Positions 6,779-64,000 of a stretch of DNA of 64,000 bases are shown piece by piece. This DNA comes from a virus. The notes under the pieces are model-generated. The model made no database searches, had not been told where the DNA came from, and saw only the letters and a list, made by a program, of their open reading frames with translations. The translations under genes and the position numbers were made by a program. The DNA lies in IMG/VR virus record IMGVR_UViG_3300010149_000010; one strand, given 5' to 3'. The first letter of the stretch is position 1. Every line of letters starts with the position of its first letter.

Positions 6779-8266
6779 TTAGTAGTTTTCAAGTATTTTC
6801 AATATATCAGATATATTATCTGTATTCTTTATCTTTTCGTATAAATTCTTATCACTTTCAGTAATCTTTGGACTAGTTTTCTGACCGTGTTGATTTTCTG
6901 GTTTAGAAATGTTGTTGCTGACATTTAATTGAGCATTACTTTTCTTTTTCGGATAAAGAATTTCATATAACTCTTCTTTATCTTTTTCTTGAATTGGCCT
7001 TTCACCTAGCTTGACTCTTGCTTCCGTTTCCGAAAGTAAATTGTTCAACCAAAGCTGAATTACTTGATTTTCTAACTTAATTTTTTCTTCTTTATCTACA
7101 GCGCCAAATTTTATATAAACCATTCTGTCAGGATTGACTATGGCATCTTGATATCCGCCCTCACATAGCAATTCGTTAATTATATACGTTTCAACAAAAG
7201 TCTTAACATTCCTTTGCAACGCTTCTACATCTTGAATTGCTATTTTTGAAAGTGCATTTGCAGTACTTCTATTGGCTGAATCTCCTTCACCCATATCCAT
7301 TGGAGTTACTCCTAGTCCTGCGTAAACTCTTTTTTTAAAATAATCTAAGTATTCTTTTATTCTTAGAGCTTTTCCTTCAGAACCAATAGCTGATATCTTA
7401 TGCCTATGGTCAGAAACAAAAATACCACCCGAAGGCATGTACTCTATTGTATTTCGGACAAGGTCTGATTCTTTTGTTCCGTCAGGACCGTACCTTTCTG
7501 GCATCGTATCACTTCCCACAGTATAGTGGTACAATGGATGAAGGTTCGAATCTATCATTTCTTCAATGTTTTCTTCTAGTCTTCTTAAAAGAGCAACATC
7601 TTCTAGAACTGGTAGTATTTCTGGCGTTCCCATAGTGAACCCAGGTTTTTTATTCGTATAAAAGTGTATGATATCGCTTGGCGAAAATTCTTTGCTTTCA
7701 GAATTACCTGGCTGCTTTTGTAAGATTTTTTTTAATTCTCCGTTTTTCTTTAATTTAAACCATAATGTTTCAAAAGGTAAAATGAAATAACCGGCCACAG
7801 GTTCTATTTCTTTTTCTCCTCGCTTAAGTACATTTCCAGAAGATGCATCTTTATTTCTAGTCTTTACCCAAGCACAATTACTATATCTGACTAAGTCATG
7901 CGCCAAGTCCGCCATTAACAAATTGAAAGGTACGCCTGAGACCGTTTCTATCTCTTTAATTCTATAATTAATATATTTAACAGTTTCTTTATCGTTACCT
8001 ACAAACTCCCACCCAGCTAAAATAAACCTTTGCACTTTTTTCTGTATCGCTTTAAATAAAAAAGCGTCAGTGTCTTGCGCTATCTGTATTTCTGTAAGAT
8101 CGTATTCAGGTTTAAACCAACGTCCCCTATGCCTATCTGCATATGACATTGCTCTGCCGTTAATTTTTTTAACTTTAACGCCGGAAAGTTTTGCACCTTG
8201 AATCGGTACATTTCGATCTTTGTTAGATATAGCGTTCAACATGTTTTCAAAATCGACTGCTTTCAT
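6779..8266 (-). CDS. Portal protein
   Basis: 495 aa; FSPSDIIHF..GTPEI, AGLGVTPMDMGEGDSANRSTA, LLSETEARVKLGERP portal-like motifs; synteny. Confidence 0.85.
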   Translation of the reverse strand: MKAVDFENMLNAISNKDRNVPIQGAKLSGVKVKKINGRAMSYADRHRGRWFKPEYDLTEIQIAQDTDAFLFKAIQKKVQRFILAGWEFVGNDKETVKYINYRIKEIETVSGVPFNLLMADLAHDLVRYSNCAWVKTRNKDASSGNVLKRGEKEIEPVAGYFILPFETLWFKLKKNGELKKILQKQPGNSESKEFSPSDIIHFYTNKKPGFTMGTPEILPVLEDVALLRRLEENIEEMIDSNLHPLYHYTVGSDTMPERYGPDGTKESDLVRNTIEYMPSGGIFVSDHRHKISAIGSEGKALRIKEYLDYFKKRVYAGLGVTPMDMGEGDSANRSTANALSKIAIQDVEALQRNVKTFVETYIINELLCEGGYQDAIVNPDRMVYIKFGAVDKEEKIKLENQVIQLWLNNLLSETEARVKLGERPIQEKDKEELYEILYPKKKSNAQLNVSNNISKPENQHGQKTSPKITESDKNLYEKIKNTDNISDILKILENY

Positions 8267-15707: not shown

Positions 15708-17915
15708 TTATCTCCAGCTTCTTTTTTTACGACCAAAGCGGCCACGTTTCGGAGCGCGATGCAATTCGCTTATCGGTGTCATACCTTGCTCAGTACCTCT
15801 ATAAGAGTTAATACCTTCTAGTATGGAAATAGGTTTTTCTTCTTTTATACTACGAGAACGGCTACTTTTTCCATCTTCTGGCCACAAACCTTGCGATTTG
15901 TATTTTTCTTTTATCATTCTATCTTCTTCGTCTGAACCACCACCTCTCATAATATTTAAAACATTTAAATCGCCCGAAGAGCCTTGTTTCTTTTTCGCCT
16001 CGTATAAGTCTCTAACTTGTTCACTCGGAGATCTGTAAATATTTCTTATTGTTTCCGCTTTATGAAAGCTGGGAGCGCTTATTTGCATTTGGCTACCCGA
16101 GTAGATAGACTCTTCTAACACCAAGCCGCCAAGAGCAAGCATGAAAGCGTCAAGCCTGTGGTCTCCCACTTTTTCATTTTGCTTCCCGTATACAGGCTTA
16201 TTGTTTTGCTTGTTCCGTTTTTCAATAATAAAATTGAAGAACTGGTTTTTTAAAACTTCTTCTTCTACTGGAAATTTGAACAAACCATCTTGAAGTATTC
16301 TTACTGCGTTCTCCACAAGAAAATGCTTGCCGGATTTTTTTATATCAGCATTTGTTATAGGGTCTTTTAACTTTATGTTACTGCTGAAATTAAAAGCTAC
16401 CAACCTGTCAGCTATGAGTACTGTTTCTTGCTCTTTGGCAGTTTTGTTCTTTTTAGCTCGAAGTGTATATGATTGGTATTTTATGTCTTCAATTATTGTA
16501 TGCCCATATCCTTCATCTGCGTAAATGTGATCTGGTTTCCACTTGTAGTTTAGATCTACCAGCTCTCTAATCCATCTTTTAGCGCTAAACTCTGAGTGCG
16601 GCACATTAACAGCATCTAAAGCCAGCCAAATTTTACTGCCAGGAAAATACCCAATTACATAAAATTCCGTTCCTGCATTTTTATTCCAGTCGATACCAAT
16701 AGCTATTGTTCTTTCACTTGCATTTCTTAACCCTAGTTTTCTCTCTAGTACTTGGGGCGAGTAAGCCTCGTCATAGGTATAATCTATACGTGCGTTATAA
16801 ACCCAATCCTTTTTAAATACACCTTGTTGGTCTTCTATGAAAACAGCCATATATTCTGCCATAAAGGACTCTTGAGTAGAATCTCTTAGGATCTCTTCTT
16901 TAATCTGCTCCCAATGAGGAATAACTGAAGAGGGTAAAAAGTCTTCCCTAAAATCATCTCTAGACAAGCACCATTCATGAAACTTGCCCTTCTTGCCAAT
17001 CGGAGTGGAAGTAGCTATAAGAATCGTATCAGGCGTTGTAGCTAAAATTGGATTGATGACTTTGTCCAACACCTCTTCTGGAATCATGTCCATCTCATCC
17101 AAGTAAACAATAGAAGCGGACTGACCACGCATAGTGCCACCACCACTACCATCAGATCTCATGCCTATACCCGATACAAAACCTTGCACCACTGCACCAT
17201 TTTTGAATTCCATCTTATACGTTGGGGTTTTTATGTACAGGCTATCTCCAGTGCCAGAAGAAACTTCGTTCATTAACTCTAAATTTCTTTTTAAAAGTTT
17301 TTCCATCTCTTCAAACAAGTTTGTTAATTGTGCCTGATAAGGAGTAACAATCATTATCGCAGGCCCCATATAAACTATGTTACCTTGTGAGTCTCTACCT
17401 CTATCTAGTTTTAAATTGTACGCGTAATATAAAAGTTTCAACGCTATCGCAAATGATTTTCCTGAGCGACGACCCTCTCTTACTGCCATCCTTTTGGAAG
17501 TGCATCGAATCTGCTCTTTCTGATAAGATCTCAAAAACCATTTATCATCTTTGTCCGAAAAACCAAACATTAGCTCCACCCAAGCAGCAGGGTCTATTGA
17601 TGCTTTTAGTATTTTTCGCGCTTGATCTTCAGGGATTTCAGCCTCTTTAGAAATCTCTTTTATTCTTGACGCTGCACCATCAGGTAATTTTCTTGGTATA
17701 TAAGTGCATTTTATCCTGTTCGAGCCGTATTTATTTATTTGTCTTATCTGGCAGGTTACGCAGGTTTTGTGGACATCTGTTTTTAAAGAAAATTCTCTCT
17801 TGAAATAAGTCAGCAATTCTTCTGGAATTGTTGCGTCTGGATCTTGATGACTTACACCATACTCGTTTGTAACATAAAGCTCACTCTCTATTAGCTTTTT
17901 AAGTTTAGGATGCAT
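15708..17915 (-). CDS. terL: Terminase large subunit
   Basis: LRSYQ adenine-binding motif, Walker A REGRRSGKS, Walker B IVYLDEMD, coupling motif ATSTP, nuclease IGIDWN..YADEG..DHRLDA. Confidence 0.93.
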   Translation of the reverse strand: MHPKLKKLIESELYVTNEYGVSHQDPDATIPEELLTYFKREFSLKTDVHKTCVTCQIRQINKYGSNRIKCTYIPRKLPDGAASRIKEISKEAEIPEDQARKILKASIDPAAWVELMFGFSDKDDKWFLRSYQKEQIRCTSKRMAVREGRRSGKSFAIALKLLYYAYNLKLDRGRDSQGNIVYMGPAIMIVTPYQAQLTNLFEEMEKLLKRNLELMNEVSSGTGDSLYIKTPTYKMEFKNGAVVQGFVSGIGMRSDGSGGGTMRGQSASIVYLDEMDMIPEEVLDKVINPILATTPDTILIATSTPIGKKGKFHEWCLSRDDFREDFLPSSVIPHWEQIKEEILRDSTQESFMAEYMAVFIEDQQGVFKKDWVYNARIDYTYDEAYSPQVLERKLGLRNASERTIAIGIDWNKNAGTEFYVIGYFPGSKIWLALDAVNVPHSEFSAKRWIRELVDLNYKWKPDHIYADEGYGHTIIEDIKYQSYTLRAKKNKTAKEQETVLIADRLVAFNFSSNIKLKDPITNADIKKSGKHFLVENAVRILQDGLFKFPVEEEVLKNQFFNFIIEKRNKQNNKPVYGKQNEKVGDHRLDAFMLALGGLVLEESIYSGSQMQISAPSFHKAETIRNIYRSPSEQVRDLYEAKKKQGSSGDLNVLNIMRGGGSDEEDRMIKEKYKSQGLWPEDGKSSRSRSIKEEKPISILEGINSYRGTEQGMTPISELHRAPKRGRFGRKKRSWR

Positions 17916-38978: not shown

Positions 38979-39695
38979 ATGATGAAATTAATATCATCGA
39001 TAATTCTCACCCTTCAATCTTCCTTATCCTTCTTATTCAGTGGTGGTGAAGTAGCGATGAACTTAGCAGACAGCAATAAGCTATCAGTTGAGGCTAAAAA
39101 GTTCGTCGACGGCGGAACTCGCAGTTTAGGAACTTGTGCATTAGCTAACCACTTAGCCAATGCTGGGTTCAGCATGTTAAACGGCTTCCTCGTAGGTTCT
39201 TACTGCGGATGGCAATGGGGACTGTTTACGACAGTCTTCTCTCTGCTTGGATTATGGTATCTTGGTGAGCTGTTACCAAAGATGACTGCAGCCAAAGCGC
39301 CAGAAAAGTTCTTAAACACTCATGCAAAAAAACTCCTCGCTGCAAAATCTCTACTATCTCCCATAGTGGACAGGATTGTGAAAGAAGAGCCAAGATGCGA
39401 AGTAAAAGAGAATGAGAAGGAATTAGTATCTGCCGCCCGTATGGCAGATGAAAAATGGAGCATCCTCTTACTACCTTTGTACGATGAACCAAAAGGAGGT
39501 AAAGCCCCATCTCTGATTCATAAAATTTCTTCATTGAGCTCCATAGAGGAGGTCATGTTGGCGGTGTGCTTGAAGAAAGAAGACAAAATAGTAGAATACC
39601 AAGTGATCGATGCCTACCACTTAAATGTAGTAGGATATTTCAACCCAATCACCATCATTCGTTGGATGATGGATCATAAAGAATTGAAAAAATGA
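38979..39695 (+). CDS. DUF21/CNNM-type transmembrane domain protein
   Basis: SFLFSGGEVA, LANHLAN and LGELLPKMTA..PEK match the DUF21 pattern (FS..E.A, N...N, GE..PK..A). Confidence 0.65.
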   Translation: MMKLISSIILTLQSSLSFLFSGGEVAMNLADSNKLSVEAKKFVDGGTRSLGTCALANHLANAGFSMLNGFLVGSYCGWQWGLFTTVFSLLGLWYLGELLPKMTAAKAPEKFLNTHAKKLLAAKSLLSPIVDRIVKEEPRCEVKENEKELVSAARMADEKWSILLLPLYDEPKGGKAPSLIHKISSLSSIEEVMLAVCLKKEDKIVEYQVIDAYHLNVVGYFNPITIIRWMMDHKELKK

Positions 39696-57276: not shown

Positions 57277-58059
57277 GTGTACTTTTATGAAAGATACACT
57301 TTGCTTAAAAAATTTCACTACGAAGATGGCCAACTTAAGTACCATCAAAAAATAAGAAAAAAAATATTTGAAGATTTAAATTTCCTGCCCACTAGCTTTT
57401 GGGACCTCAACCCAATAATTAGCGGCAGTTACGCAATCAATCTTCTCTTTAAACCACAATCCTTTTATGATGACGTAGACTTCTACTTTGAATTTCAAGA
57501 CCAATATGATGAAGCAAAAGCTATTCTTAATGGTTTTTCAGAAGAAGCTTCTTCTTTGAATTGTCAAACTTTTACAATTGGAAATAAAAAAATACAGCTT
57601 GTTAGTAAGTTTTTTAACTCTCCGCAAAACATAATATTTGCACATGATTTTAAGAATTCTTCAATAGCAATCACGAAAGACTGGATATATATAGACTCAG
57701 TAATATTTAAATTATACTATGAGTCTTTACTTTCAATTCGTTCTACTCAAATTGACCCTACAATGACAGAAGAAGCTACAGTCAAAAAAATTGCTTTGCT
57801 TTTTAACAGAATTCTAAAATACACAAGCCGCTACGATTTAACTTTGGATGATGAATCAATTCAAATTTTAAAATCTTTGCGAACCTATCTTACTAATACT
57901 CCAATTGAAACTACCAAAAGTATTTTGATAAATACAACCATTTACTACGACGGTAACCATTCTCCTTATCAAAATAATCTTAGAACTATTCTTGAAATAA
58001 AAGAACATTTAGACGCATTTTTGTTCCCCTATGATCAGCTGCCTACTCTTTGTTTTTAA
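57277..58059 (+). CDS. Nucleotidyltransferase, CCA/poly(A) polymerase head-like
   Basis: ISGSY..DDVDFYF, IQLV, HDFKNSSIAI, RILKY motifs. Confidence 0.7.
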   Translation: MYFYERYTLLKKFHYEDGQLKYHQKIRKKIFEDLNFLPTSFWDLNPIISGSYAINLLFKPQSFYDDVDFYFEFQDQYDEAKAILNGFSEEASSLNCQTFTIGNKKIQLVSKFFNSPQNIIFAHDFKNSSIAITKDWIYIDSVIFKLYYESLLSIRSTQIDPTMTEEATVKKIALLFNRILKYTSRYDLTLDDESIQILKSLRTYLTNTPIETTKSILINTTIYYDGNHSPYQNNLRTILEIKEHLDAFLFPYDQLPTLCF

Positions 58060-58287: not shown

Positions 58288-61134
58288 ATGAGATTTTATA
58301 ATTTTTTCACAAATATAAAAAACAGTCCTTGCAACGAAGATAAAAAAGAAATAGCTAGGATTAAACAAATGCTAATTCATGGAGAAGACCAGACATTTTA
58401 TTCTCCTGCTACAGAATTCAATAGAATCAGCCAGGATACTGTTAATTCTATTGAATTCATGAAACAATTAAACCCCACTGTTTTCCAAACCATTGAGAGT
58501 CAAACTTTACCCTTCTTAAGCTTTTTAAATCGAAAGCAAAGTGCTGCACACTATATAAGAAGCAACAATCCGCAAACAGCTTTTCTTAGAGAGCTGCAGG
58601 CTGCTGGAAATGTAAGGGATTTAGACGCTAAGATTTCTGTAATCTATAGTTTATTTACGCACATTACACACCGCTCTTGTTTTATTTCAGATTTTTTCAA
58701 AAGTAATTCTAGAGCTCCTAATAAAAACTTTTTATATTTGTTAAAAGTTTTTGAAAACACCCATAACCTTTCAAATCAATATCATCTCAATTTAGAAGCT
58801 CATCAACACTTTTTAGAAAATGGTCATGTTTGCTGGGTCGACTCTTTGGAGCACTGCCAGTCTCTAAACGATACGGCTTCTTCAACCCCGATAAAAGAAA
58901 TAGCTAAAATTTACATTGCTTTTTTTGAGCATTTATTAAAAAAAAAAAATAATATTGAAGATAACAATCATCATTCGCTAGGCAGCCTGATCTGGAACAC
59001 TCTTTATCAAACTGACAATAATCCCAATTTCCTTCATCTAACTTTTGAAAAGCCTACTGAGGTTTTATTGAATCTTACAGAAAAGCAAATCAAAGACAAA
59101 ATAGCTATGTTTTCGTCAATTGAAATTTTCAATTACCTCCAGATGAACTCACTCGAAAGTACAGATAACGAAAAGGTATACAGCCATTTTTCTAATCAAT
59201 TTTTTACTAAATTTAAAGAAAACAGCGAAGATCCCAATCTTTCAAATGAAAACAATTTGATTAAAATCGATTCCAATCCTATTGACTTGCGATTCACCTC
59301 ATCTAACCTTAATGAAACCACTTGGACCTATTCCAACTTGTTTGCTCGCAATAATCAAGACACAATACAGTGCTTCCCCCCTAAAGGTGATGGAAGAAGT
59401 AATTCTCAATACATACCTCTAGCAGGCACTACTGGTTTGTTAATTGATGACACATCAGGCAAATATGCAAGTCTTGATGTCGCTTCTTCTCTTCAAGCTA
59501 ATCCAAATAAACGTGTTTTTGGTTTAATGCTTAATGCTTTTACCAAAGCCACACTGAAGCCTTCTTTTGAATTCATCACTCTAACTAAAAAACAGGCTTT
59601 AATCAGAAAAGGGTTTTTCATTCCAGTTCTATTAAAATTCCTATCTTGTAATGAAGAAGGGGCAATTGAAACAGCTTACAACTTTTCTTTAATGAATTAT
59701 AGCGACAATCTTAGTTCTATTATTAAAAGAAAGAGAAGCAGAGACCAAATTATAGCCTTCTACAACGCTTACGGCGAAGATGGTTTAAGGTTAATAAACT
59801 ACCAAAAGTTCTTACTTGACCAAAAAAAAAAGATAAAAAAACTAGCCGAATATTCTTTCGCTAACGCTCCTACTTTTAGCAATTATAGTTCTGTTGAAAT
59901 CAACCAACTACTCTCATGCTTGAATTCAATCAAGAACAGTCACTCAAAAAAAGCTAGCCAATCTTTAGTAACTTTTAGCGATAAGCTAACCGCTAAATTA
60001 AATCTCGAACCTTCAATAACTAAAAAGTACAACAAAGTAAGCTCCAATTACAAAAAACTTGTATCGCAAAACACTGAAGAAAGAGGTCTTGTCTCTGATT
60101 TTGCTCGCAACATAGAGCAAGGAAATATGAATATTGAAGGGCTAACCAGAACCATTCAAGAGAATCAAAACAGAATGAAGGAAATGAAAAAACAACTCTC
60201 TGAAAGCACATTACATTTGAAAACTAGCTTTAATAAAAGAGTTGACCTTATTGAAACAATATGCGCAAACAAATCATTATACTTGAAAGTTTTAAAAGAT
60301 TACAATAAAGCTACTGAAATAGCTTTAAGCCAACAAGACTACTCTCAAAACGATTTTTTTAAAAACATTTATGAAACTGAATCTGTAAAAATACTTTCAA
60401 TAGCTAGTTCTAAACAAATCATCGATTGCACAAATTCTGAGAATTACCTTGACGACTTAGCTACAAAAATTGCAGGCAAGAAGGAAAACTTTTTAATTAA
60501 AGAAGTAATTTTCCTTATAGACGCGCCTGTAAAGATAAATGTTGATGGCGGGCGCAAAGGACAAATTGTAGGTGGCCCTTATCTCGTTGCTGTCAAAAAA
60601 GACGAACTTAAAATCAAGCTCGCCTACCCAAGCTCTATTCACGGCTATTCTGACGAATCTAAAAAAATTTACATCCACCCTCATTCAGGTTCATGTCAAG
60701 CTTTAAGTCTTATCAATTATTTTCAACAATTAGAAAGTCATGAACCTGACCATTACTGGTCAAGAGCTTGTCTTGGCGAAGCCTCTTCTTTGATCTATCG
60801 CGCTTTTGAAAAAGAAAATGACCTTAAATTAATCTTAATTTCAGCGTTAACTTGGGTTAAAAACGCAAACAGCGCTGACACTTGGGGTAAAAATTATAAG
60901 TATTTCCCTAAATACTCTCAGATCCAAGAGGAGTTGTCAACTCCTCTCTTAAATCAACAAGAAATCACTGAAGAAGACGTAGGCGATTTCATTGAAGAGA
61001 TGATCGTTTCTGAAGAAGAAAACCTCCAAGAAGAGCCCAACCAACAACAACCACTTCAACAAGAACAAGAAAATGTAACAGAAGCTCATACTGAACCTGT
61101 CTCGCAGGTTTACGTACCGTATACACAAAGGTAA
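58288..61134 (+). CDS. Large protein with coiled coil and C-terminal prokaryotic E2-like domain
   Basis: GPYLVAV..IHPH (60676-60684)..ACLGE (Cys 60769)..NSADTWG pattern; adjacent to JAB, E1 and Ubl genes. Confidence 0.65.
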   Translation: MRFYNFFTNIKNSPCNEDKKEIARIKQMLIHGEDQTFYSPATEFNRISQDTVNSIEFMKQLNPTVFQTIESQTLPFLSFLNRKQSAAHYIRSNNPQTAFLRELQAAGNVRDLDAKISVIYSLFTHITHRSCFISDFFKSNSRAPNKNFLYLLKVFENTHNLSNQYHLNLEAHQHFLENGHVCWVDSLEHCQSLNDTASSTPIKEIAKIYIAFFEHLLKKKNNIEDNNHHSLGSLIWNTLYQTDNNPNFLHLTFEKPTEVLLNLTEKQIKDKIAMFSSIEIFNYLQMNSLESTDNEKVYSHFSNQFFTKFKENSEDPNLSNENNLIKIDSNPIDLRFTSSNLNETTWTYSNLFARNNQDTIQCFPPKGDGRSNSQYIPLAGTTGLLIDDTSGKYASLDVASSLQANPNKRVFGLMLNAFTKATLKPSFEFITLTKKQALIRKGFFIPVLLKFLSCNEEGAIETAYNFSLMNYSDNLSSIIKRKRSRDQIIAFYNAYGEDGLRLINYQKFLLDQKKKIKKLAEYSFANAPTFSNYSSVEINQLLSCLNSIKNSHSKKASQSLVTFSDKLTAKLNLEPSITKKYNKVSSNYKKLVSQNTEERGLVSDFARNIEQGNMNIEGLTRTIQENQNRMKEMKKQLSESTLHLKTSFNKRVDLIETICANKSLYLKVLKDYNKATEIALSQQDYSQNDFFKNIYETESVKILSIASSKQIIDCTNSENYLDDLATKIAGKKENFLIKEVIFLIDAPVKINVDGGRKGQIVGGPYLVAVKKDELKIKLAYPSSIHGYSDESKKIYIHPHSGSCQALSLINYFQQLESHEPDHYWSRACLGEASSLIYRAFEKENDLKLILISALTWVKNANSADTWGKNYKYFPKYSQIQEELSTPLLNQQEITEEDVGDFIEEMIVSEEENLQEEPNQQQPLQQEQENVTEAHTEPVSQVYVPYTQR

Positions 61135-61137
61135 AAA

Positions 61138-62247
61138 ATGAAATCAGTAACTTCCCACAATATATTAAATAACATCCCTATTATTTCTATAACCCACAAA
61201 GGGCTAGAAGCTATTAAAGAGATTGTTAGAATCGCTCCCCAAGAAGCGCAATGGTTTCATACTGTTGAACCAGTTATTTATAAACAATCTCCTAATGAAA
61301 TCCACCTACACCTTTCGGAAAAGATATACATACCTACTCAAAATACTTCTGCTGCTCAAGTCGACACTACTTCGTCAATGATGATGGATTTTTATCGTGA
61401 GCTTAAGAAAGATTATGAAGACCAGGAAACTGTTAACAGTAAATTATCTGCAATGACTTGTTGGTGTCATAGTCACCACAATATGTCACCTAATCCAAGT
61501 AATCAGGATGATTTACAGTTTAACTCCTTCATTACTTTAGCAGAAGACCAGGGTACAAAAGCTTGGCAGGTCATGCTTATTTTTAATAAGAAAGATCAAT
61601 TTTACAGTCGAGTTTACGATCCTACCACAGACACAGTACACGAAGGTGTTCCAATCCGCGTAGTTCGCGACTATGACTTTTCTTATATTCATCAAGCTGC
61701 AAGAACCAAGTTTATCAAACCCAAGCCAAAGATGAAAAAAAAGAATGCTTCAGGATGGAATCTTGGAAGATTTACATCGTCAAAAAGTTTCGAAAGCTCT
61801 TTTTTTGCAAATTCCAAAGATGATAAAGTCCTTTCAAATGATCTTAACGAAGAAATTGTAATCGGAGTTTTAAATGATATTTTCGATAACTACAATGTTT
61901 ACATGCCGCCTACTCAACAATTTACCAAAACCATAAGCCTTCATTCTAGTAACTTACAAAAGCTCCAAGAAGCTCTTTACGCAACTTTTGATGAGAGAGA
62001 AATAGCATTCTTTACCTTTTTCATTACAGGTAAGCAGAAACAAATTCCTAGCTTTTTTTCAGATTCCGCTTTTACCAAAAAGTTCCCTACAATAGATAAA
62101 TGCCTCACCTTTTTTAAAGAGACTTTAAAGAATAATACTTTTTCTATTCAAGACATGTACGAAGCCTTAACATCTACTTTAGAAATAGTAGACCTAGAAA
62201 CCAGAAAACAATGCAAGGACTATATTGACAATGACGGAATCATTTAA
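61138..62247 (+). CDS. JAB/JAMM (MPN+) metallopeptidase
   Basis: EAQW ... WCHSHHNMSPNPSNQDD = E..HxH-x7-S-x2-D. Confidence 0.88.
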   Translation: MKSVTSHNILNNIPIISITHKGLEAIKEIVRIAPQEAQWFHTVEPVIYKQSPNEIHLHLSEKIYIPTQNTSAAQVDTTSSMMMDFYRELKKDYEDQETVNSKLSAMTCWCHSHHNMSPNPSNQDDLQFNSFITLAEDQGTKAWQVMLIFNKKDQFYSRVYDPTTDTVHEGVPIRVVRDYDFSYIHQAARTKFIKPKPKMKKKNASGWNLGRFTSSKSFESSFFANSKDDKVLSNDLNEEIVIGVLNDIFDNYNVYMPPTQQFTKTISLHSSNLQKLQEALYATFDEREIAFFTFFITGKQKQIPSFFSDSAFTKKFPTIDKCLTFFKETLKNNTFSIQDMYEALTSTLEIVDLETRKQCKDYIDNDGII

Positions 62248-62965
62248 CGCAACTAATGTATCTTTTTTACGACATGGTGCTTTTTTTGGACCAGAAGACT
62301 CTCAAGATAAAGTTTTAAATATCATTGGAGTTGGTGCTACTGGCAGTTGGGTTGGACTTTTAGCTGCTAAAATGGGTTGGCAACATTTTCGTGTTTGGGA
62401 CGCTGATATAGTCGAATCTCACAACTTGCCTAATCAAATTTACGATTTAGAACAAGTTGGCTTACCTAAAGTAACCGCTTTTAAACAAAAACTACTTCAG
62501 TTCAATCCAGAGGTAGTAGTCGAAACAAATAATAAGTTCTTTCTTTCTGAACAAGACAAAGACAACCTTGAAGATTATGTTTTTGTTGCAGTCGATTCTC
62601 TTTCAGCAAGAAAAGATATTATCGAAGGGGTCCGCTCTCACCTTCTCCTTGACTACGTCATTGAAACAAGGATGGGTTTCGAACATGCAGAAATCAATAT
62701 TATCGATCCAGCCTACTCTGCACAGATTGACTCTTATTTAAGCACCTTAAAAACAGATGAAGAAGTGACTGAAAGCGCTTGTGATGCACGTATTATTACG
62801 ACTTTAACTTGCATCGTTTCCTCTTCTGTTGTACACACTTTGTGTGGTTTAGCTGCTCAAGACAGGCATGGAGAAACTTACACTCCTCAACCTAAACAAA
62901 TATTCTCTTTACCCTCCAACATCAACACTACTTTATCTACATTTACAATAGGGTCAAAAACATGA
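62231..62965 (+). CDS. ThiF/E1-family ubiquitin-like activating enzyme
   Basis: IIGVGATGS, DADIVESHNLPNQ, GLPKV, AVDSLSAR, ETRMG, candidate catalytic Cys in ESAC; no CxxC zinc pairs. Confidence 0.92.
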   Translation: MTESFNATNVSFLRHGAFFGPEDSQDKVLNIIGVGATGSWVGLLAAKMGWQHFRVWDADIVESHNLPNQIYDLEQVGLPKVTAFKQKLLQFNPEVVVETNNKFFLSEQDKDNLEDYVFVAVDSLSARKDIIEGVRSHLLLDYVIETRMGFEHAEINIIDPAYSAQIDSYLSTLKTDEEVTESACDARIITTLTCIVSSSVVHTLCGLAAQDRHGETYTPQPKQIFSLPSNINTTLSTFTIGSKT

Positions 62966-63147
62966 CAAAACAAAAAATTAATGAAATTATTACAAATCTA
63001 ACTGATGCTCTAACCGATGCTGAGAAATTTGACTCTGGCAATGATGCTGCTGGACGTCGGATTAGAAATGCAGCCCAAACAGCAAAAGCCGATCTGCAAG
63101 AACTTCGAAAGCTAGTTCAAGAAGAAAGAAATTCTCGAAAAGCTTAA
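62962..63147 (+). CDS. Hc1 (histone H1-like) N-terminal domain-like protein
   Basis: DAEKFDSGNDAAGRRIR..LQELRK matches the Hc1 GN.AA..R.R signature. Confidence 0.75.
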   Translation: MTKQKINEIITNLTDALTDAEKFDSGNDAAGRRIRNAAQTAKADLQELRKLVQEERNSRKA

Positions 63148-63197
63148 AATAAACAATCCGTTTTCAACATTAACAAAACATCATCATTCAAAAAACC

Positions 63198-63218
63198 GGG
63201 GGCTTTGCCCCCTTTTTT
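63198..63218 (+). terminator. Intrinsic terminator
   Basis: GGGGGC-TTT-GCCCCC followed by TTTTTT. Confidence 0.7.
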
Positions 63219-63237
63219 ATTTAAAAAGAGAAAAAAA

Positions 63238-63684
63238 ATGACTAACATCACACTTATTGTAATTCCTGGATCTGGCGCTCGCCAAACTTCTTTAAACTCT
63301 AGCGCTACTGTTTCAGATCTTGCCTGCCAAGAGAACCTACACGGCCGCGATATTATCATTGACGGTGTGGGTGTCCCTGCAGATCAATGGGCAACCACAC
63401 CAGTTCCTAACGGAGCAGAAGTCTTTGCTACCGGTAGCGTCAAGGGTAATAATTCATCTTTTACTTTGATCGTTATTCCTGGATCTGGCGCTCGCCAAAT
63501 TTCAATGGCTGGCTCAACTTCAACCCTTACAGTTGCAGCTCTGGTTTGCCAAGAAAACTTACATGGCCGCGATATTATTGTTGATGGCCGTGGTGTACCC
63601 CCTGCTGAGTGGGAAACTACAACCATTTCTTCCGGAAATGAAGTCTTCGCCACTGGTAGCGTTAAGGGCAATAATGGTATCTGA
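63238..63684 (+). CDS. Tandem ubiquitin-like (beta-grasp) precursor, two repeats each ending VKG-N
   Basis: Two ~70-aa repeats TLIVIPGSGARQ..CQENLHGRDII.DG..EVFATGSVKGN; final NNGI cap. Confidence 0.8.
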   Translation: MTNITLIVIPGSGARQTSLNSSATVSDLACQENLHGRDIIIDGVGVPADQWATTPVPNGAEVFATGSVKGNNSSFTLIVIPGSGARQISMAGSTSTLTVAALVCQENLHGRDIIVDGRGVPPAEWETTTISSGNEVFATGSVKGNNGI

Positions 63685-63958
63685 TTTAAAATATTCTATC
63701 TCTTCTGGTGACGGCGCTAAACAAGCGTTTTTAAATCTCCTCGAACAAGAAGCAGCTTGGCAAGACAATTATCAAATTCAAGGCTTTTTTGCCCCTTATA
63801 AAAGGTATAAAATTGTTTCTCTTGATGAGTTTCCTTCTAAAGAAGAGGCGGTTTCTTTTATTAATTCAAATAGACCATTTAAGTTGCGTCCAAAAACACT
63901 AGGTTGCGTTTTTATAAAAAATGACACCAACACTAAATATCTGTTTTTTATTCAATAG
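63674..63958 (+). CDS. Hypothetical protein
   Basis: MVSDLKYS start overlapping the Ubl stop. Confidence 0.5.
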   Translation: MVSDLKYSISSGDGAKQAFLNLLEQEAAWQDNYQIQGFFAPYKRYKIVSLDEFPSKEEAVSFINSNRPFKLRPKTLGCVFIKNDTNTKYLFFIQ

Positions 63959-64000
63959 TATAAGGAAACCTATGGGCTCTTCTACTTTTTATTTATCTAC

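Follow-up and report, generated by a model that had tools for sequence, protein, structure and literature searches.

Ubiquitin-style gene sets have so far been described only as bacterial anti-phage defences. Bil (BilABCD) is an ISG15-like anti-phage system (PMC10557695; bioRxiv 10.1101/2023.09.04.556158; PMC11601596). Bub operons of types I and II are the "6E"/DUF6527 operons (PMC11601596, PMC11601603), and type II CBASS includes Cap2, an E2-E1 protein, and Cap3, a JAB protein (PMC10097602). The sulfur carrier systems ThiS-ThiF and MoaD-MoeB, and the TAPI/TAPK proteins of lambda tail assembly, offer further points of comparison (PMC1779556). Here, we describe a ubiquitin-style gene set that is encoded by a phage, an uncultured marine phage of ~160 kb; our literature search found no paper on this cassette. 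From its gene content, we infer that the phage owns a ubiquitin-like (Ubl) conjugation pathway with polyubiquitin-style precursors, a reading to which we assign a probability of roughly 60%. All positions refer to the window, i.e., the whole 64,000-nucleotide stretch of viral DNA that was analysed.

A conserved gene block in ~160 kb phages

The initial annotation described a cassette at 58288–63684, and its ORFs and coordinates were confirmed. The first of the five co-directional genes encodes a protein of 948 aa. Genes for a JAB peptidase and a minimal ThiF/E1 protein come next, then one for a histone-like protein of the Hc1 type and, last, one for a protein with tandem beta-grasp domains (Table 1). 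While these members stand, the bounds do not: the conserved block also has nucleotidyltransferase (NTase)-like and zinc-ribbon genes upstream, and additional Ubl genes as well as the A/B genes downstream. From the zinc-ribbon gene through Hc1, successive genes abut or overlap in an operon-like manner, and a terminator-like hairpin stands between this enzyme operon and the Ubl genes.

Table 1. Features of the gene block and their positions in the window
Feature	Position	Strand	Remarks
NTase-like protein, 260 aa	57277..58059	+	Pol-beta-type signature; Gad2-like lead; conserved neighbour upstream of cassette
Zinc-ribbon protein, 67 aa	58083..58286	+	Four Cys (Cx5C...Cx2C); stop abuts start of 948-aa gene
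948-aa protein	58288..61134	+	Fast-evolving N-terminal region, coiled coil, E2-like domain, acidic tail
E2-like (UBC-like) domain	60490..61002	+	Residues about 735-905; candidate catalytic Cys828 at nt 60769-60771
JAB/JAMM metallopeptidase, 369 aa	61138..62247	+	N-terminal ~190 aa plus variable helical C-terminal half
Minimal E1-like adenylating enzyme, 246 aa	62225..62965	+	One ThiF domain; overlaps end of JAB gene; start TTG at 62225 or ATG at 62231
Hc1 histone H1-like protein, 61 aa	62962..63147	+	Lys/Arg-rich; start overlaps E1 stop
GC-rich, terminator-like hairpin	63198..63212	.	6 GC pairs, loop 3, then TTTTTTATTT; T-runs on both sides
Di-Ubl precursor, 148 aa	63238..63684	+	ATG at 63238; two beta-grasp units
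Small protein A, 94 aa	63674..63958	+	Paralogue of B; ATG overlaps last 11 nt of di-Ubl gene
Small protein B (start)	63973..64000	+	Begins MGSSTFY...; runs off window

A synteny check found JAB, E1 and Ubl genes in the same order on all 13 distinct viral contigs that encode the E2-like domain, establishing strict co-inheritance of the set. The E2-like domain was found in no bacterial genome and no GenBank phage. The NTase-like gene lies upstream in 12 of the 13 contigs, and the Hc1 gene lies between E1 and Ubl in nine; the Hc1 match (3e-13, 49.8 bits) exceeds the Pfam cut-off of 23.5. The NTase-like protein has no Pfam or PDB sequence matches. Its G50, D66xD68 and D124 are invariant (n = 7 homologues), and its ESM-atlas neighbours are viral clusters with Pfam Gad2 in 49–67% of members (score 0.96). 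Zinc-ribbon homologues occupy the same position in contigs L004–L009, L020 and L022, and a family search with this protein gave no match. Protein A, which has no Pfam or PDB matches, is kept after the Ubl genes in L004–L009 and L020.

PHROGs matches to major head protein, portal and TerL bear out the phage context. The term "jumbo phage" used in the initial annotation is wrong, since complete relatives, which carry terminal repeats, measure 161,098 and 161,781 bp; the longest contig within the protein cluster is 158,919 bp. A family search of the window showed that ThyX and SSB adjoin the cassette and also found a DUF1599 domain ("nucleotide modification associated"). The cassette lies in an early/DNA-metabolism neighbourhood.

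Predicted enzymes and Ubl precursors

The E1 matches Pfam ThiF (5.2e-21), and PADLOC E1-E2 models match it down to 7e-12, through their E1 half alone. GxGxxG, D59, D124 and C186 (nt 62780-62782) are invariant among 10 phage E1s, distant ones included. PDB relatives are PaaA (top, 6e-8), TcdA, UBA5, ThiF and MoeB. The protein has neither a separate catalytic-Cys domain nor an E2-docking domain. In the peptidase, the JAMM motif is exact (E..HSHx7SNQD, with HxHx7SxxD at nt 61468-61509), and E36, H111, H113, S121 and D124 are invariant (n = 8 homologues). Matches to Prok-JAB (E 0.0078) and PADLOC JAB models (about 0.01) do not reach the cut-offs.

The 948-aa protein is the most divergent of the block, with 35% identity to L009, compared with 58–77% for its neighbours. 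It belongs to no Pfam, PHROG or PADLOC family, and its PDB matches are coiled coils only. The motifs first noted in it are all present, and invariant or nearly so (n = 139 homologues): HPH (residues 797-799; nt 60676-60684), CLG(EA), and SANSxDxWG (residues 859-867). Invariant residues of the domain are G763, P764, H797, P798, H799, C828, G830, D864, W866 and G867, and each of 213 representative homologues lies in a large protein. The AF2 model of the domain (pLDDT 87) has a UBC-like order of elements: a helix at the N terminus, the beta-meander, HPH and Cys, and finally helices. UBC E2s account for 22 of the 25 PDB structural matches with Z ≥ 2, the top match being UBE2S (Z 4.1, rmsd 3.5, 95 residues aligned), although this maximum is below the level that the structural tool counts as reliable. 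A wider structural search was also E2-rich and included BubB (Z 2.5). With Foldseek against PDB, no E was below 0.09, and neighbours in a language-model atlas, which we treat as a lead only, have Prok-E2_D in 15–44% of members. The UBC fold proposed at the outset for this domain thus has a confident model and E2-dominated neighbours in its favour, but Z does not exceed 4.1 and Pfam UQ_con, Prok-E2 and other E2 HMMs give no match. From the model, we tentatively suggest that the domain is an E2.

The beta-grasp repeats, by contrast with the E2 call, are well supported. The AF2 model of the di-Ubl (pLDDT 81) has beta-grasp topology twice, and Foldseek matches it to ISG15 and linear di-ubiquitin (E 3e-6, probability 1.00). 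The two units (63238-63450 and 63451-63672) are 66% identical to one another (E 2e-33); both end in FATGSVKG-N, and a three-residue cap, NGI, comes last. Pfam matches are weak, to ThiS, SAMP2 and Lambda_tail_I. At least 172 homologues have 1–3 units, and 29 longer ones have 3–4 units plus cargo, so that genes carry 1–4 units. Units are 60–75% identical across phages whose 948-aa proteins are about 30% identical. The tag end is not Gly-Gly; rather, VKG is followed by Asn in 320 of 320 units. What comes after VKG-N is variable: the next unit, a cap, a Gly/Arg-rich tail, or protein B. B is fused in frame behind 2–4 Ubl units in other phages (P0202, P0272, P0286 and P0276). Its family has >1700 clusters and no Pfam family; B alone begins M-GA..., and the fused form N-GA.... 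Among natural termini, 23 proteins stop at ...VKGN and none at ...VKG, so the reactive end may be Asn. To our knowledge, no Ubl conjugation system uses Asn in this way. In 297 of 322 units, the sole Lys is the one in VKG (Lys outside VKG is 0.12%, as opposed to 4–12% in neighbouring proteins). This composition is consistent with the handling of the tag by lysine-directed chemistry.

More distant triads occur in Bacteroides phage crAss001 (gp78-gp77-gp76), bajarodcaudo virus 1, and Xanthomonas phage PhiXhv-15. In these, a JAB ("metalloprotease") and/or a ThiF-like E1 is immediately preceded by a hypothetical HxH...C(L/T)G protein, and the E1s have the same invariant Cys. The proteins are annotated just as ThiF, metalloprotease or hypothetical. 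The E2-like model matches crAss-like proteins in BFVD (probability 0.77–0.96); sequence similarity is marginal (hhalign E 0.005–0.16, probability ≤7%). The crAss001 and bajarodcaudo virus 1 triads sit inside the replication module. The triads of cultured phages have no gene of the cassette's Ubl family, and no obvious Ubl gene adjoins them.

Proposed pathway and alternative readings

We infer a pathway that runs from precursor cleavage, through adenylation and thioester transfer of the tag, to its conjugation to lysines. Mono-, di-, tri- or tetra-unit Ubl precursors would be made, some with short caps, Gly/Arg-rich tails or fused B. JAB would cut the invariant VKG-N junction, releasing individual beta-grasp tags of ~70 residues together with any passenger. 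The E1, probably a homodimer, would adenylate the exposed C-terminal carboxylate of the tag and may hold the tag on Cys186, and the tag would pass to Cys828 of the UBC-like domain. Because targets would be picked by the fast-evolving N-terminal region and coiled coil of the same protein, it may be a combined E2/E3. The tag would end on target lysines, with reversal by JAB possible. As for the initial proposal of a phage-owned tagging pathway, the E1, the JAB, the tandem beta-grasp Ubl and their co-inheritance hold, whereas the E2 call is weak and conjugation is putative. In weighing this reading, we counted in its favour the invariant motifs and matches of E1, JAB, Ubl and E2-like domain, the Bil-like E2-JAB-E1 gene order, the operon-like spacing, strict co-inheritance, the arrangement of the precursors, lysine avoidance, the higher conservation of Ubl units than of the 948-aa proteins, and the search results for sulfur-transfer and cofactor genes, and against it the weakness of the E2, the lack of a Gly-Gly end, the minimal E1, the hairpin, and the Ubl-less distant triads.

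Since the crAss-like and Xanthomonas phage triads have no obvious adjoining Ubl gene, the triad might act on something else, e.g., in DNA replication or nucleic-acid modification, with the arrays as non-conjugated regulators, chaperone-like leaders for A/B, or structural adaptors that JAB merely trims. The replication-module location of two of these triads, ThyX and SSB beside the cassette, the hairpin splitting enzymes from Ubl genes, and tRNA-modifying TcdA among the E1's relatives all point this way. We nevertheless consider it unlikely: in this phage clade, Ubl genes are never apart from the triad (13/13 contigs), a non-reactive protein would give little reason for the strict conservation of the flexible tail or for the avoidance of lysine, and the crAss-like E1 is longer by ~150 aa at its N terminus, where there could be room for a Ubl.

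Two further alternatives keep the Ubl as a substrate. In a sulfur carrier of the ThiS/MoaD/TtuB type, the Ubl would be adenylated and thiocarboxylated, sulfur would go to nucleotide, tRNA or DNA modification, and JAB would only mature the carrier. Such a carrier would have no role for multi-unit arrays, cargo fusions or lysine avoidance, nor would it explain an E2-like domain, with its invariant Cys, that is always present. As the initial annotation implied, 40 other window ORFs include no cofactor-biosynthesis or sulfur-transfer families and no ThiG/MoaE-type genes; rhodanese, PP-loop ATPase and cysteine desulfurase were not found in three complete relatives, in searches whose controls worked, although host enzymes could still provide sulfur. 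We therefore regard this reading as quite improbable, even though in a PDB sequence search the Ubl profile aligns best, from end to end, with E. coli ThiS (at E 0.096), homologues are named "sulfur carrier protein ThiS" in source annotations, the E1 has the size of a minimal ThiF/MoeB, and the neighbourhood, including DUF1599, is one of nucleotide metabolism. MccB is an E1-family enzyme that adenylates a C-terminal Asn. MccB/PaaA-like chemistry strikes us as highly improbable. In this reading, the E1 would act on the Asn at the end of the released tag and turn it into a succinimide or a nucleotide adduct, yielding no protein conjugate but a modified protein or a peptide-nucleotide product. Against it, the substrate would be a folded beta-grasp domain, the E1 is an adenylation domain alone, whereas MccB and PaaA also have a peptide-clamp or RRE-type domain at the N terminus, and the E2-like Cys domain and lysine avoidance suggest transfer chemistry. 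The invariant Asn and the ...VKGN termini suit an Asn-modifying enzyme, as does PaaA as top match, and the two beginnings of B are compatible with a cut after Asn; an invariant P1' Asn could equally set protease specificity.

If the phage does conjugate its Ubl, host takeover or counter-defence would be our guess at the role, given that the cassette lies in an early/DNA-metabolism setting beside a Gad2-like gene and that its presumed target-recognition part diverges rapidly.

Comparison with described systems

In the ThiS-ThiF, MoaD-MoeB and TAPI/TAPK systems, as in the cassette, a beta-grasp protein is paired with either an E1-like enzyme or a JAB. However, the cassette lacks sulfur-transfer and cofactor genes, is not part of the tail module and encodes no NlpC/P60 domain; only the cassette has an E2-like domain and multi-unit arrays. 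Type II CBASS shares E1, E2 and JAB chemistry, an adjoining nucleotidyltransferase gene, and the PADLOC E1-E2 similarity (up to 7e-12). CBASS has no Ubl and instead acts on the C-terminal end of its CD-NTase, its E2 and E1 are fused, and it needs a cyclic-nucleotide effector, which is absent here; the NTase-like neighbour resembles Gad2 rather than CD-NTase.

Bub systems also have Ubls with 1–3 beta-grasp domains and JAB together with E1, and BubB is a structural match (Z 2.5). Unlike the cassette, with its invariant Cys in both E1 and E2-like domain, Bub proceeds through serine/oxyester intermediates, and its E1 lacks a catalytic Cys. The cassette has none of the Ubl-E2, JAB-E1 or E2-E1 fusions of Bub, nor the DUF6527 protease BubE.

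Bil has a Ubl with at least one beta-grasp domain, an E2, a Ubl-pre-processing JAB and an E1, with the enzymes in the same order (BilB-BilC-BilD; PMC11601596). There is no separate E3 in either, and the Bil E2 is thought to select targets. The differences are that (i) Bil is a bacterial defence, whereas this cassette is on a lytic-type phage; (ii) the E1 here, set against that of Bil, is a single 246-aa domain; (iii) the Bil E2 is small, whereas the E2-like domain closes a 948-aa coiled-coil protein and has no E2 HMM match; (iv) Bil Ubls expose one C-terminal Gly, whereas every array unit here has the same VKG-N end; and (v) the Ubl genes here are several and lie downstream of the enzymes.

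Polyubiquitin and ubiquitin-fusion genes include yeast UBI4 and human UBB/UBC and UBA52/RPS27A. By analogy, rather than gene homology, the Ubl precursors resemble them in their head-to-tail units with the same C-terminal motif, short final cap, and occasional in-frame fusion to an unrelated small protein. The polyubiquitin junction is GG-M and is cut by a Cys DUB, whereas here it is G-N, with putative processing by a JAB metalloprotease.

A conserved cassette in a large tailed phage

The window derives from a large tailed phage. The initial annotation described a genome with a large terminase, a portal and a major head protein, and PHROGs profiles find all three. It also called the phage “jumbo”, a term for which the line is drawn at 200 kb. 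The longest contig in the cluster of the di-Ubl protein is 158,919 bp, and two complete relatives, bounded by direct terminal repeats, measure 161,098 and 161,781 bp, all under 200 kb. Therefore, the phage is large yet under the jumbo line, and the label has to be dropped.

The open reading frames of the ubiquitin-like (Ubl) cassette lie where they had been placed (see table). From the Zn-ribbon gene through the Hc1 gene, neighbors in the window abut or overlap. To ask how far this arrangement is kept, the window proteins were compared by tblastn with 13 distinct IMG/VR contigs; some of the 23 loci retrieved overlap as pieces of the same contigs. A single gene order is kept across all 13. Its 5′ part consists of ThyX, SSB, an amidase (on the opposite strand), a nucleotidyltransferase-like protein, the Zn-ribbon protein and the 948-aa family; its 3′ part consists of JAB, E1, Hc1 (in 9 of the 13 contigs) and then at least one Ubl gene, interleaved with the small paralogues A and B. 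JAB, E1 and Ubl are all present on every contig located via the E2-like domain. Neither the cassette, nor the E2-like domain, nor the di-Ubl matched anything in 50,697 GenBank phage records by DNA search and tblastn; among the cassette queries, E1 alone reaches distant relatives there.

Two companions of the cassette have features of their own. The Hc1 gene, related to the chlamydial histone H1-like protein, is translationally coupled to the E1 gene in 9/13 contigs, and its product is rich in Lys and Arg (about 10% each). A DNA-compacting protein within a ubiquitin-like operon is reminiscent of histone ubiquitination, with no link between the two here. The nucleotidyltransferase-like protein is a constant companion directly 5′ of the Ubl cassette. 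Its family profile matches nothing in PDB or Pfam; as a lead only, its ESM-atlas neighbors are viral clusters in which 49–67% of members carry Pfam Gad2, the anti-Gabija family. This gene may serve counter-defence. In loci L001 and L003, which belong to a more distant clade, a Lon-type AAA+ protein is predicted just 5′ of the nucleotidyltransferase-like gene, and between the latter and the Zn-ribbon gene a trypsin-like protein is predicted on the opposite strand.

Coordinates of features in the window and, where an L-number is given, at loci in related phages
Feature	Position	Strand	Remarks
Major head protein	1240-2586	minus	PHROGs
Portal	6779-8266	minus	PHROGs, E 1e-52
Large terminase	15708-17915	minus	PHROGs, E 4e-30
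SLT transglycosylase, 2OG-Fe(II) oxygenase, DUF1599 “nucleotide modification associated” domain	24000-57000		carried by ORFs within this range (Pfam scan, 40 other window ORFs)
CNNM transmembrane domain protein	38979-39695		Pfam scan, 40 other window ORFs
Nucleotidyltransferase-like protein	57277-58059		260 aa; Pol-beta signature, with G50, D66xD68, D124 invariant
Zn-ribbon protein	58083		
948-aa protein	58288-61134		C-terminal E2-like domain
JAB	61138-62247		369 aa
E1	62225-62965		246 aa
Hc1	62962-63147	+	61 aa; Pfam Hc1 3e-13, above threshold
GC hairpin with flanking T-runs	63198-63212		between Hc1 and Ubl genes
di-Ubl	63238-63684		ATG at 63238
Protein A	63674-63958		
Protein B	63973-64000		runs past window end
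A/B site, L009	10236-10888		
Protein-A frame, L008	10201-10542		overlaps Ubl gene end; no ATG nearby
Protein-A frame, L004	10642-10947		overlaps Ubl gene end; no ATG nearby
Gly/Arg-tailed mono-Ubl, L007	9645-9929		
Gly/Arg-tailed mono-Ubl, L008	10532-10846		
Gly/Arg-tailed mono-Ubl, L009	10893-11189		
Lon-type AAA+ protein, L001	2186-3958		
Trypsin-like protein, L001	5067-5765		

The enzymes: E1, JAB and a virus-only E2-like family

The E1 is a solid ThiF-family protein (Pfam ThiF, E 5.2e-21; bit score 75, cut-off 28). It has one ThiF domain only (residues 32–219), and has PaaA, TcdA, UBA5, ThiF and MoeB as its PDB relatives. Across 10 aligned phage E1s (that of the window, seven orthologues and two more distant ones), the GxGxxG glycines (G35, G37 and G40), D59 and D124 are invariant. 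So is the single cysteine, Cys186, at what we take to be the site of the ThiF/MoeB/UBA5 cysteine, which makes it a candidate catalytic residue for an E1~Ubl thioester; a separate CYS domain is absent. An adenylation domain with a lone cysteine had been predicted from the sequence, as had a JAMM motif, and both are there. In JAB, the metal-binding motif (E...HxHx7SxxD) is exact, and E36, H111, H113, S121 and D124 are invariant in 8 homologues. HMM matches to Prok-JAB (0.0078) and to PADLOC JAB (about 0.01) fall below cut-off, and the JAB-family profile finds nothing relevant in PDB.

The 948-aa protein has no Pfam, PHROG or PADLOC family match. Its E2-like part, the C-terminal ~170 residues, defines a large family: clustering at 50% identity leaves 213 representatives, almost all within proteins of 700–1100 aa. 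The remainder consists of a fast-evolving N-terminal region and a coiled coil, and the profile of the whole family matches only coiled coils in PDB. Within the E2-like domain, G763, P764, H797, P798, H799, C828, G830, D864, W866 and G867 are invariant. An HPN-type motif (HPH, 797–799) and a candidate catalytic cysteine (Cys828), separated by a variable insert, are thus both present and are invariant in 139 sequences. The AF2 model built from 100 sequences (pLDDT 87) has its elements in the order found in UBC, i.e., N-terminal helix, beta-meander, HPH, variable insert, Cys and helices.

VIA-align comparisons point, if weakly, in the same direction. A wide VIA-align search of 48,161 representative chains returned E2, UEV or RWD proteins, BubB included, for about half of its top 50, and in a second search against PDB, 22 of the 25 rows with Z ≥2 were UBC E2s, with 90–105 residues aligned. 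These matches are weak (Z 2–4.1, rmsd 3.5–4.8), the best being UBE2S (Z 4.1, rmsd 3.5 Å, 95 residues), and the best Foldseek match of the model in PDB has an E of 0.09, which is not significant. ESM-atlas neighbors, a language-model lead, are viral clusters with Prok-E2_D in 15–44% of members (score 0.94–0.96). Sequence searches gave no corresponding match: 61 E2-like members hit no Pfam family, including UQ_con and Prok-E2_A to E, at E up to 0.1; the PF14460 (Prok-E2_D) HMM, run at E up to 10, produced no candidate in the records of five related phages; and phmmer of the domain against PDB found nothing. A complex prediction of the domain with one Ubl unit scored 0.00, a value that speaks neither for nor against an interaction. 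The initial annotation had read this domain as E2-like, with an HPH..CLG..N..D.WG signature. The signature itself stands, its motifs being invariant or nearly so, but no E2 HMM recognizes the domain and its matches to the UBC fold are weak. We treat the domain as probably UBC-like. It constitutes a new virus-only family outside the curated E2 families; no relative turned up in 185,579 species genomes of bacteria and archaea, scanned twice with a sensitivity limited to a few peptide patterns.

Ubl tags and their precursors

The proposed beta-grasp repeats are well supported. The two units of the di-Ubl are 66% identical, a duplication that is clear at the protein level and was not seen at the DNA level by Tandem Repeats Finder. 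The AF2 model (63 homologues, pLDDT 81) has the beta-beta-alpha-beta-beta-beta topology twice, and Foldseek matches it to ISG15, linear di-ubiquitin, polyubiquitin and FAT10 at probability 1.00, with E down to 3e-6. Homologues contain one, two, three or four units, and arrays of three or four are often fused in frame to protein B (P0272, P0286 and P0276). The same 158,919-bp contig carries, beyond base 64000, a third Ubl gene (P0252, 87 aa) and protein B.

In Ubl modifiers, the C-terminal tail is flexible, and its last Gly, usually one of a Gly-Gly pair, is left exposed for adenylation. The tail of the phage units has one Gly only, which is never the final residue as translated. All 320 units, from 149 proteins, end in VKG followed by Asn, and the GSVKG-N tail is invariant (320/320). 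The continuation beyond the Asn varies between the next unit, 1–4 cap residues, a tail and protein B. Among the 149 proteins, 23 terminate exactly at VKGN and none at VKG. A constant junction with a variable continuation calls for a processing protease, a part that JAB would most naturally fill; BilC pre-processes BilA in a like manner (bioRxiv 10.1101/2023.09.26.559546). Stand-alone B proteins start M-GA, where fused B reads N-GA, and in an alignment with ThiS, G70 of the Ubl lies opposite the penultimate Gly of ThiS. Both observations are compatible with a tag that ends in Asn. It is also classical for precursors of the ubiquitin family to carry one extra capping residue behind the reactive Gly. 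Lysine is also avoided: 297 of 322 units have none besides that of VKG (0.12%), compared with 4–12% in neighboring proteins, as expected for a tag that must escape self-conjugation.

Proteins A and B are paralogues of ~95–110 aa, interleaved with Ubl genes, that share a G..A..AF start and an AGC...YLFF end. Their profiles match nothing in PDB or Pfam, and the B family has >1700 clusters. In other phages, B is fused in frame behind 2–4 Ubl units (P0202, P0272 and P0286), like ubiquitin-passenger fusions. We considered whether a frameshift fuses the di-Ubl with the domain that follows it in this window and rejected this, because the ATG of protein A overlaps the Ubl stop codon, as in a normal coupled gene. 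Finally, in one class of mono-Ubls (P0254, P0257, P0259, P0262 and P0265), VKG-N is followed by a conserved tail rich in Gly and Arg (...GRPSGGGRGNNP...). Cutting at the junction would free a conserved RGG-like peptide; an intact junction would leave a Ubl with a possible nucleic-acid-binding tail.

Interpretation and comparison with known systems

Bacterial Ubl conjugation is currently viewed as an anti-phage weapon of the host (Bil, CBASS Cap2/Cap3 and probably Bub). A complete, strictly conserved, phage-borne kit would reverse this picture, and it raises the question whether what is tagged belongs to the host, to rival phages or to the phage itself. A bolder reading than plain Ubl conjugation, to which we give roughly a one-in-five chance, is that these marine phages run their own ubiquitin-type tagging. 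Polyubiquitin-like precursors would yield a mature tag ending in Asn (VKG-N) rather than Gly, and a giant, fast-evolving E2/E3 hybrid would attach it to host proteins (e.g., defence or nucleoid proteins) during takeover. If true, these phages would have a viral counterpart to the Bil defence of bacteria, and with it a new C-terminal chemistry. The tag genes show two features thought to be typical of eukaryotes, head-to-tail polyubiquitin-type arrays and tag-passenger fusions, and two that are odd, the invariant Gly-Asn end and the near-total avoidance of lysine.

The most serious rival to conjugation of the Ubl is that the triad of E2-like protein, JAB and E1 acts on some other substrate. Cultured phages have distant versions of the triad with no evident Ubl. 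In crAss001 (L024), gp78 (YMHSH...TPCTG), gp77 (Prok-JAB 5e-4) and gp76 (ThiF 8e-16) lie within the replication module, and bajarodcaudo virus 1 (L010) has the same layout; in Xanthomonas phage PhiXhv-15 (L011), the gene immediately 5′ of ThiF encodes an 892-aa protein with GxY...HPH...CLG. The relationship of the E2-like domain to the crAss-like proteins is supported by structural matches of its model in BFVD (probability 0.77–0.96), while hhalign probabilities for the distant-triad link are very low (≤7%). Such triads suggest an enzyme core that may occur widely among phages and lend itself to experiment. The crAss001 genes sit between primase and uracil-DNA glycosylase, and the distant set as a whole (HxH..C protein, JAB, and E1 with the same invariant Cys) is annotated only as hypothetical, metalloprotease or ThiF.

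The other two alternatives concern the chemistry at the tail of the Ubl. As a sulfur carrier of the ThiS/MoaD type, the Ubl would need partners that host enzymes could supply; we disfavor this role, because Rhodanese, ATP_bind_3 and Aminotran_5 (the families of rhodanese, PP-loop ATPase and cysteine desulfurase) are absent from three complete relatives, whereas control genomes all score, and the 40 other window ORFs include no cofactor-biosynthesis or sulfurtransferase family, in line with the earlier remark that no such cofactor genes are adjacent. We consider MccB/PaaA-like chemistry on the terminal Asn unlikely, as the N-domain that binds the peptide is missing from the E1.

The cassette is best viewed as a new, phage-borne form of the prokaryotic Ubl conjugation systems; in the library that was searched, no paper on phage-encoded systems of this kind turned up. 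Bil is nearest to it in predicted function and in gene order. However, the E1 architecture that defines Bil (PMC11601596) differs from the short, single-domain E1 of the phage. Bub is set apart by its Ubl-E2, JAB-E1 or E2-E1 fusions, which are absent here, by its DUF6527 serine protease BubE, which was not found among the cassette proteins or the 40 other window ORFs, and by its serine/oxyester chemistry, whereas the invariant residue here is Cys, not Ser. In type II CBASS, E2 and E1 are fused in Cap2, whereas the phage encodes them as separate genes, and PADLOC finds neither the defining CD-NTase substrate nor an effector; its E1-E2 models match the cassette over the E1 half only. ThiS/MoaD systems have sulfurtransferase and cofactor/thiolation enzymes, which were not found in the window or in the three complete relatives. 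The cassette is distinguished from these systems by its minimal E1, its giant E2-like protein and its polyubiquitin-style tag genes.
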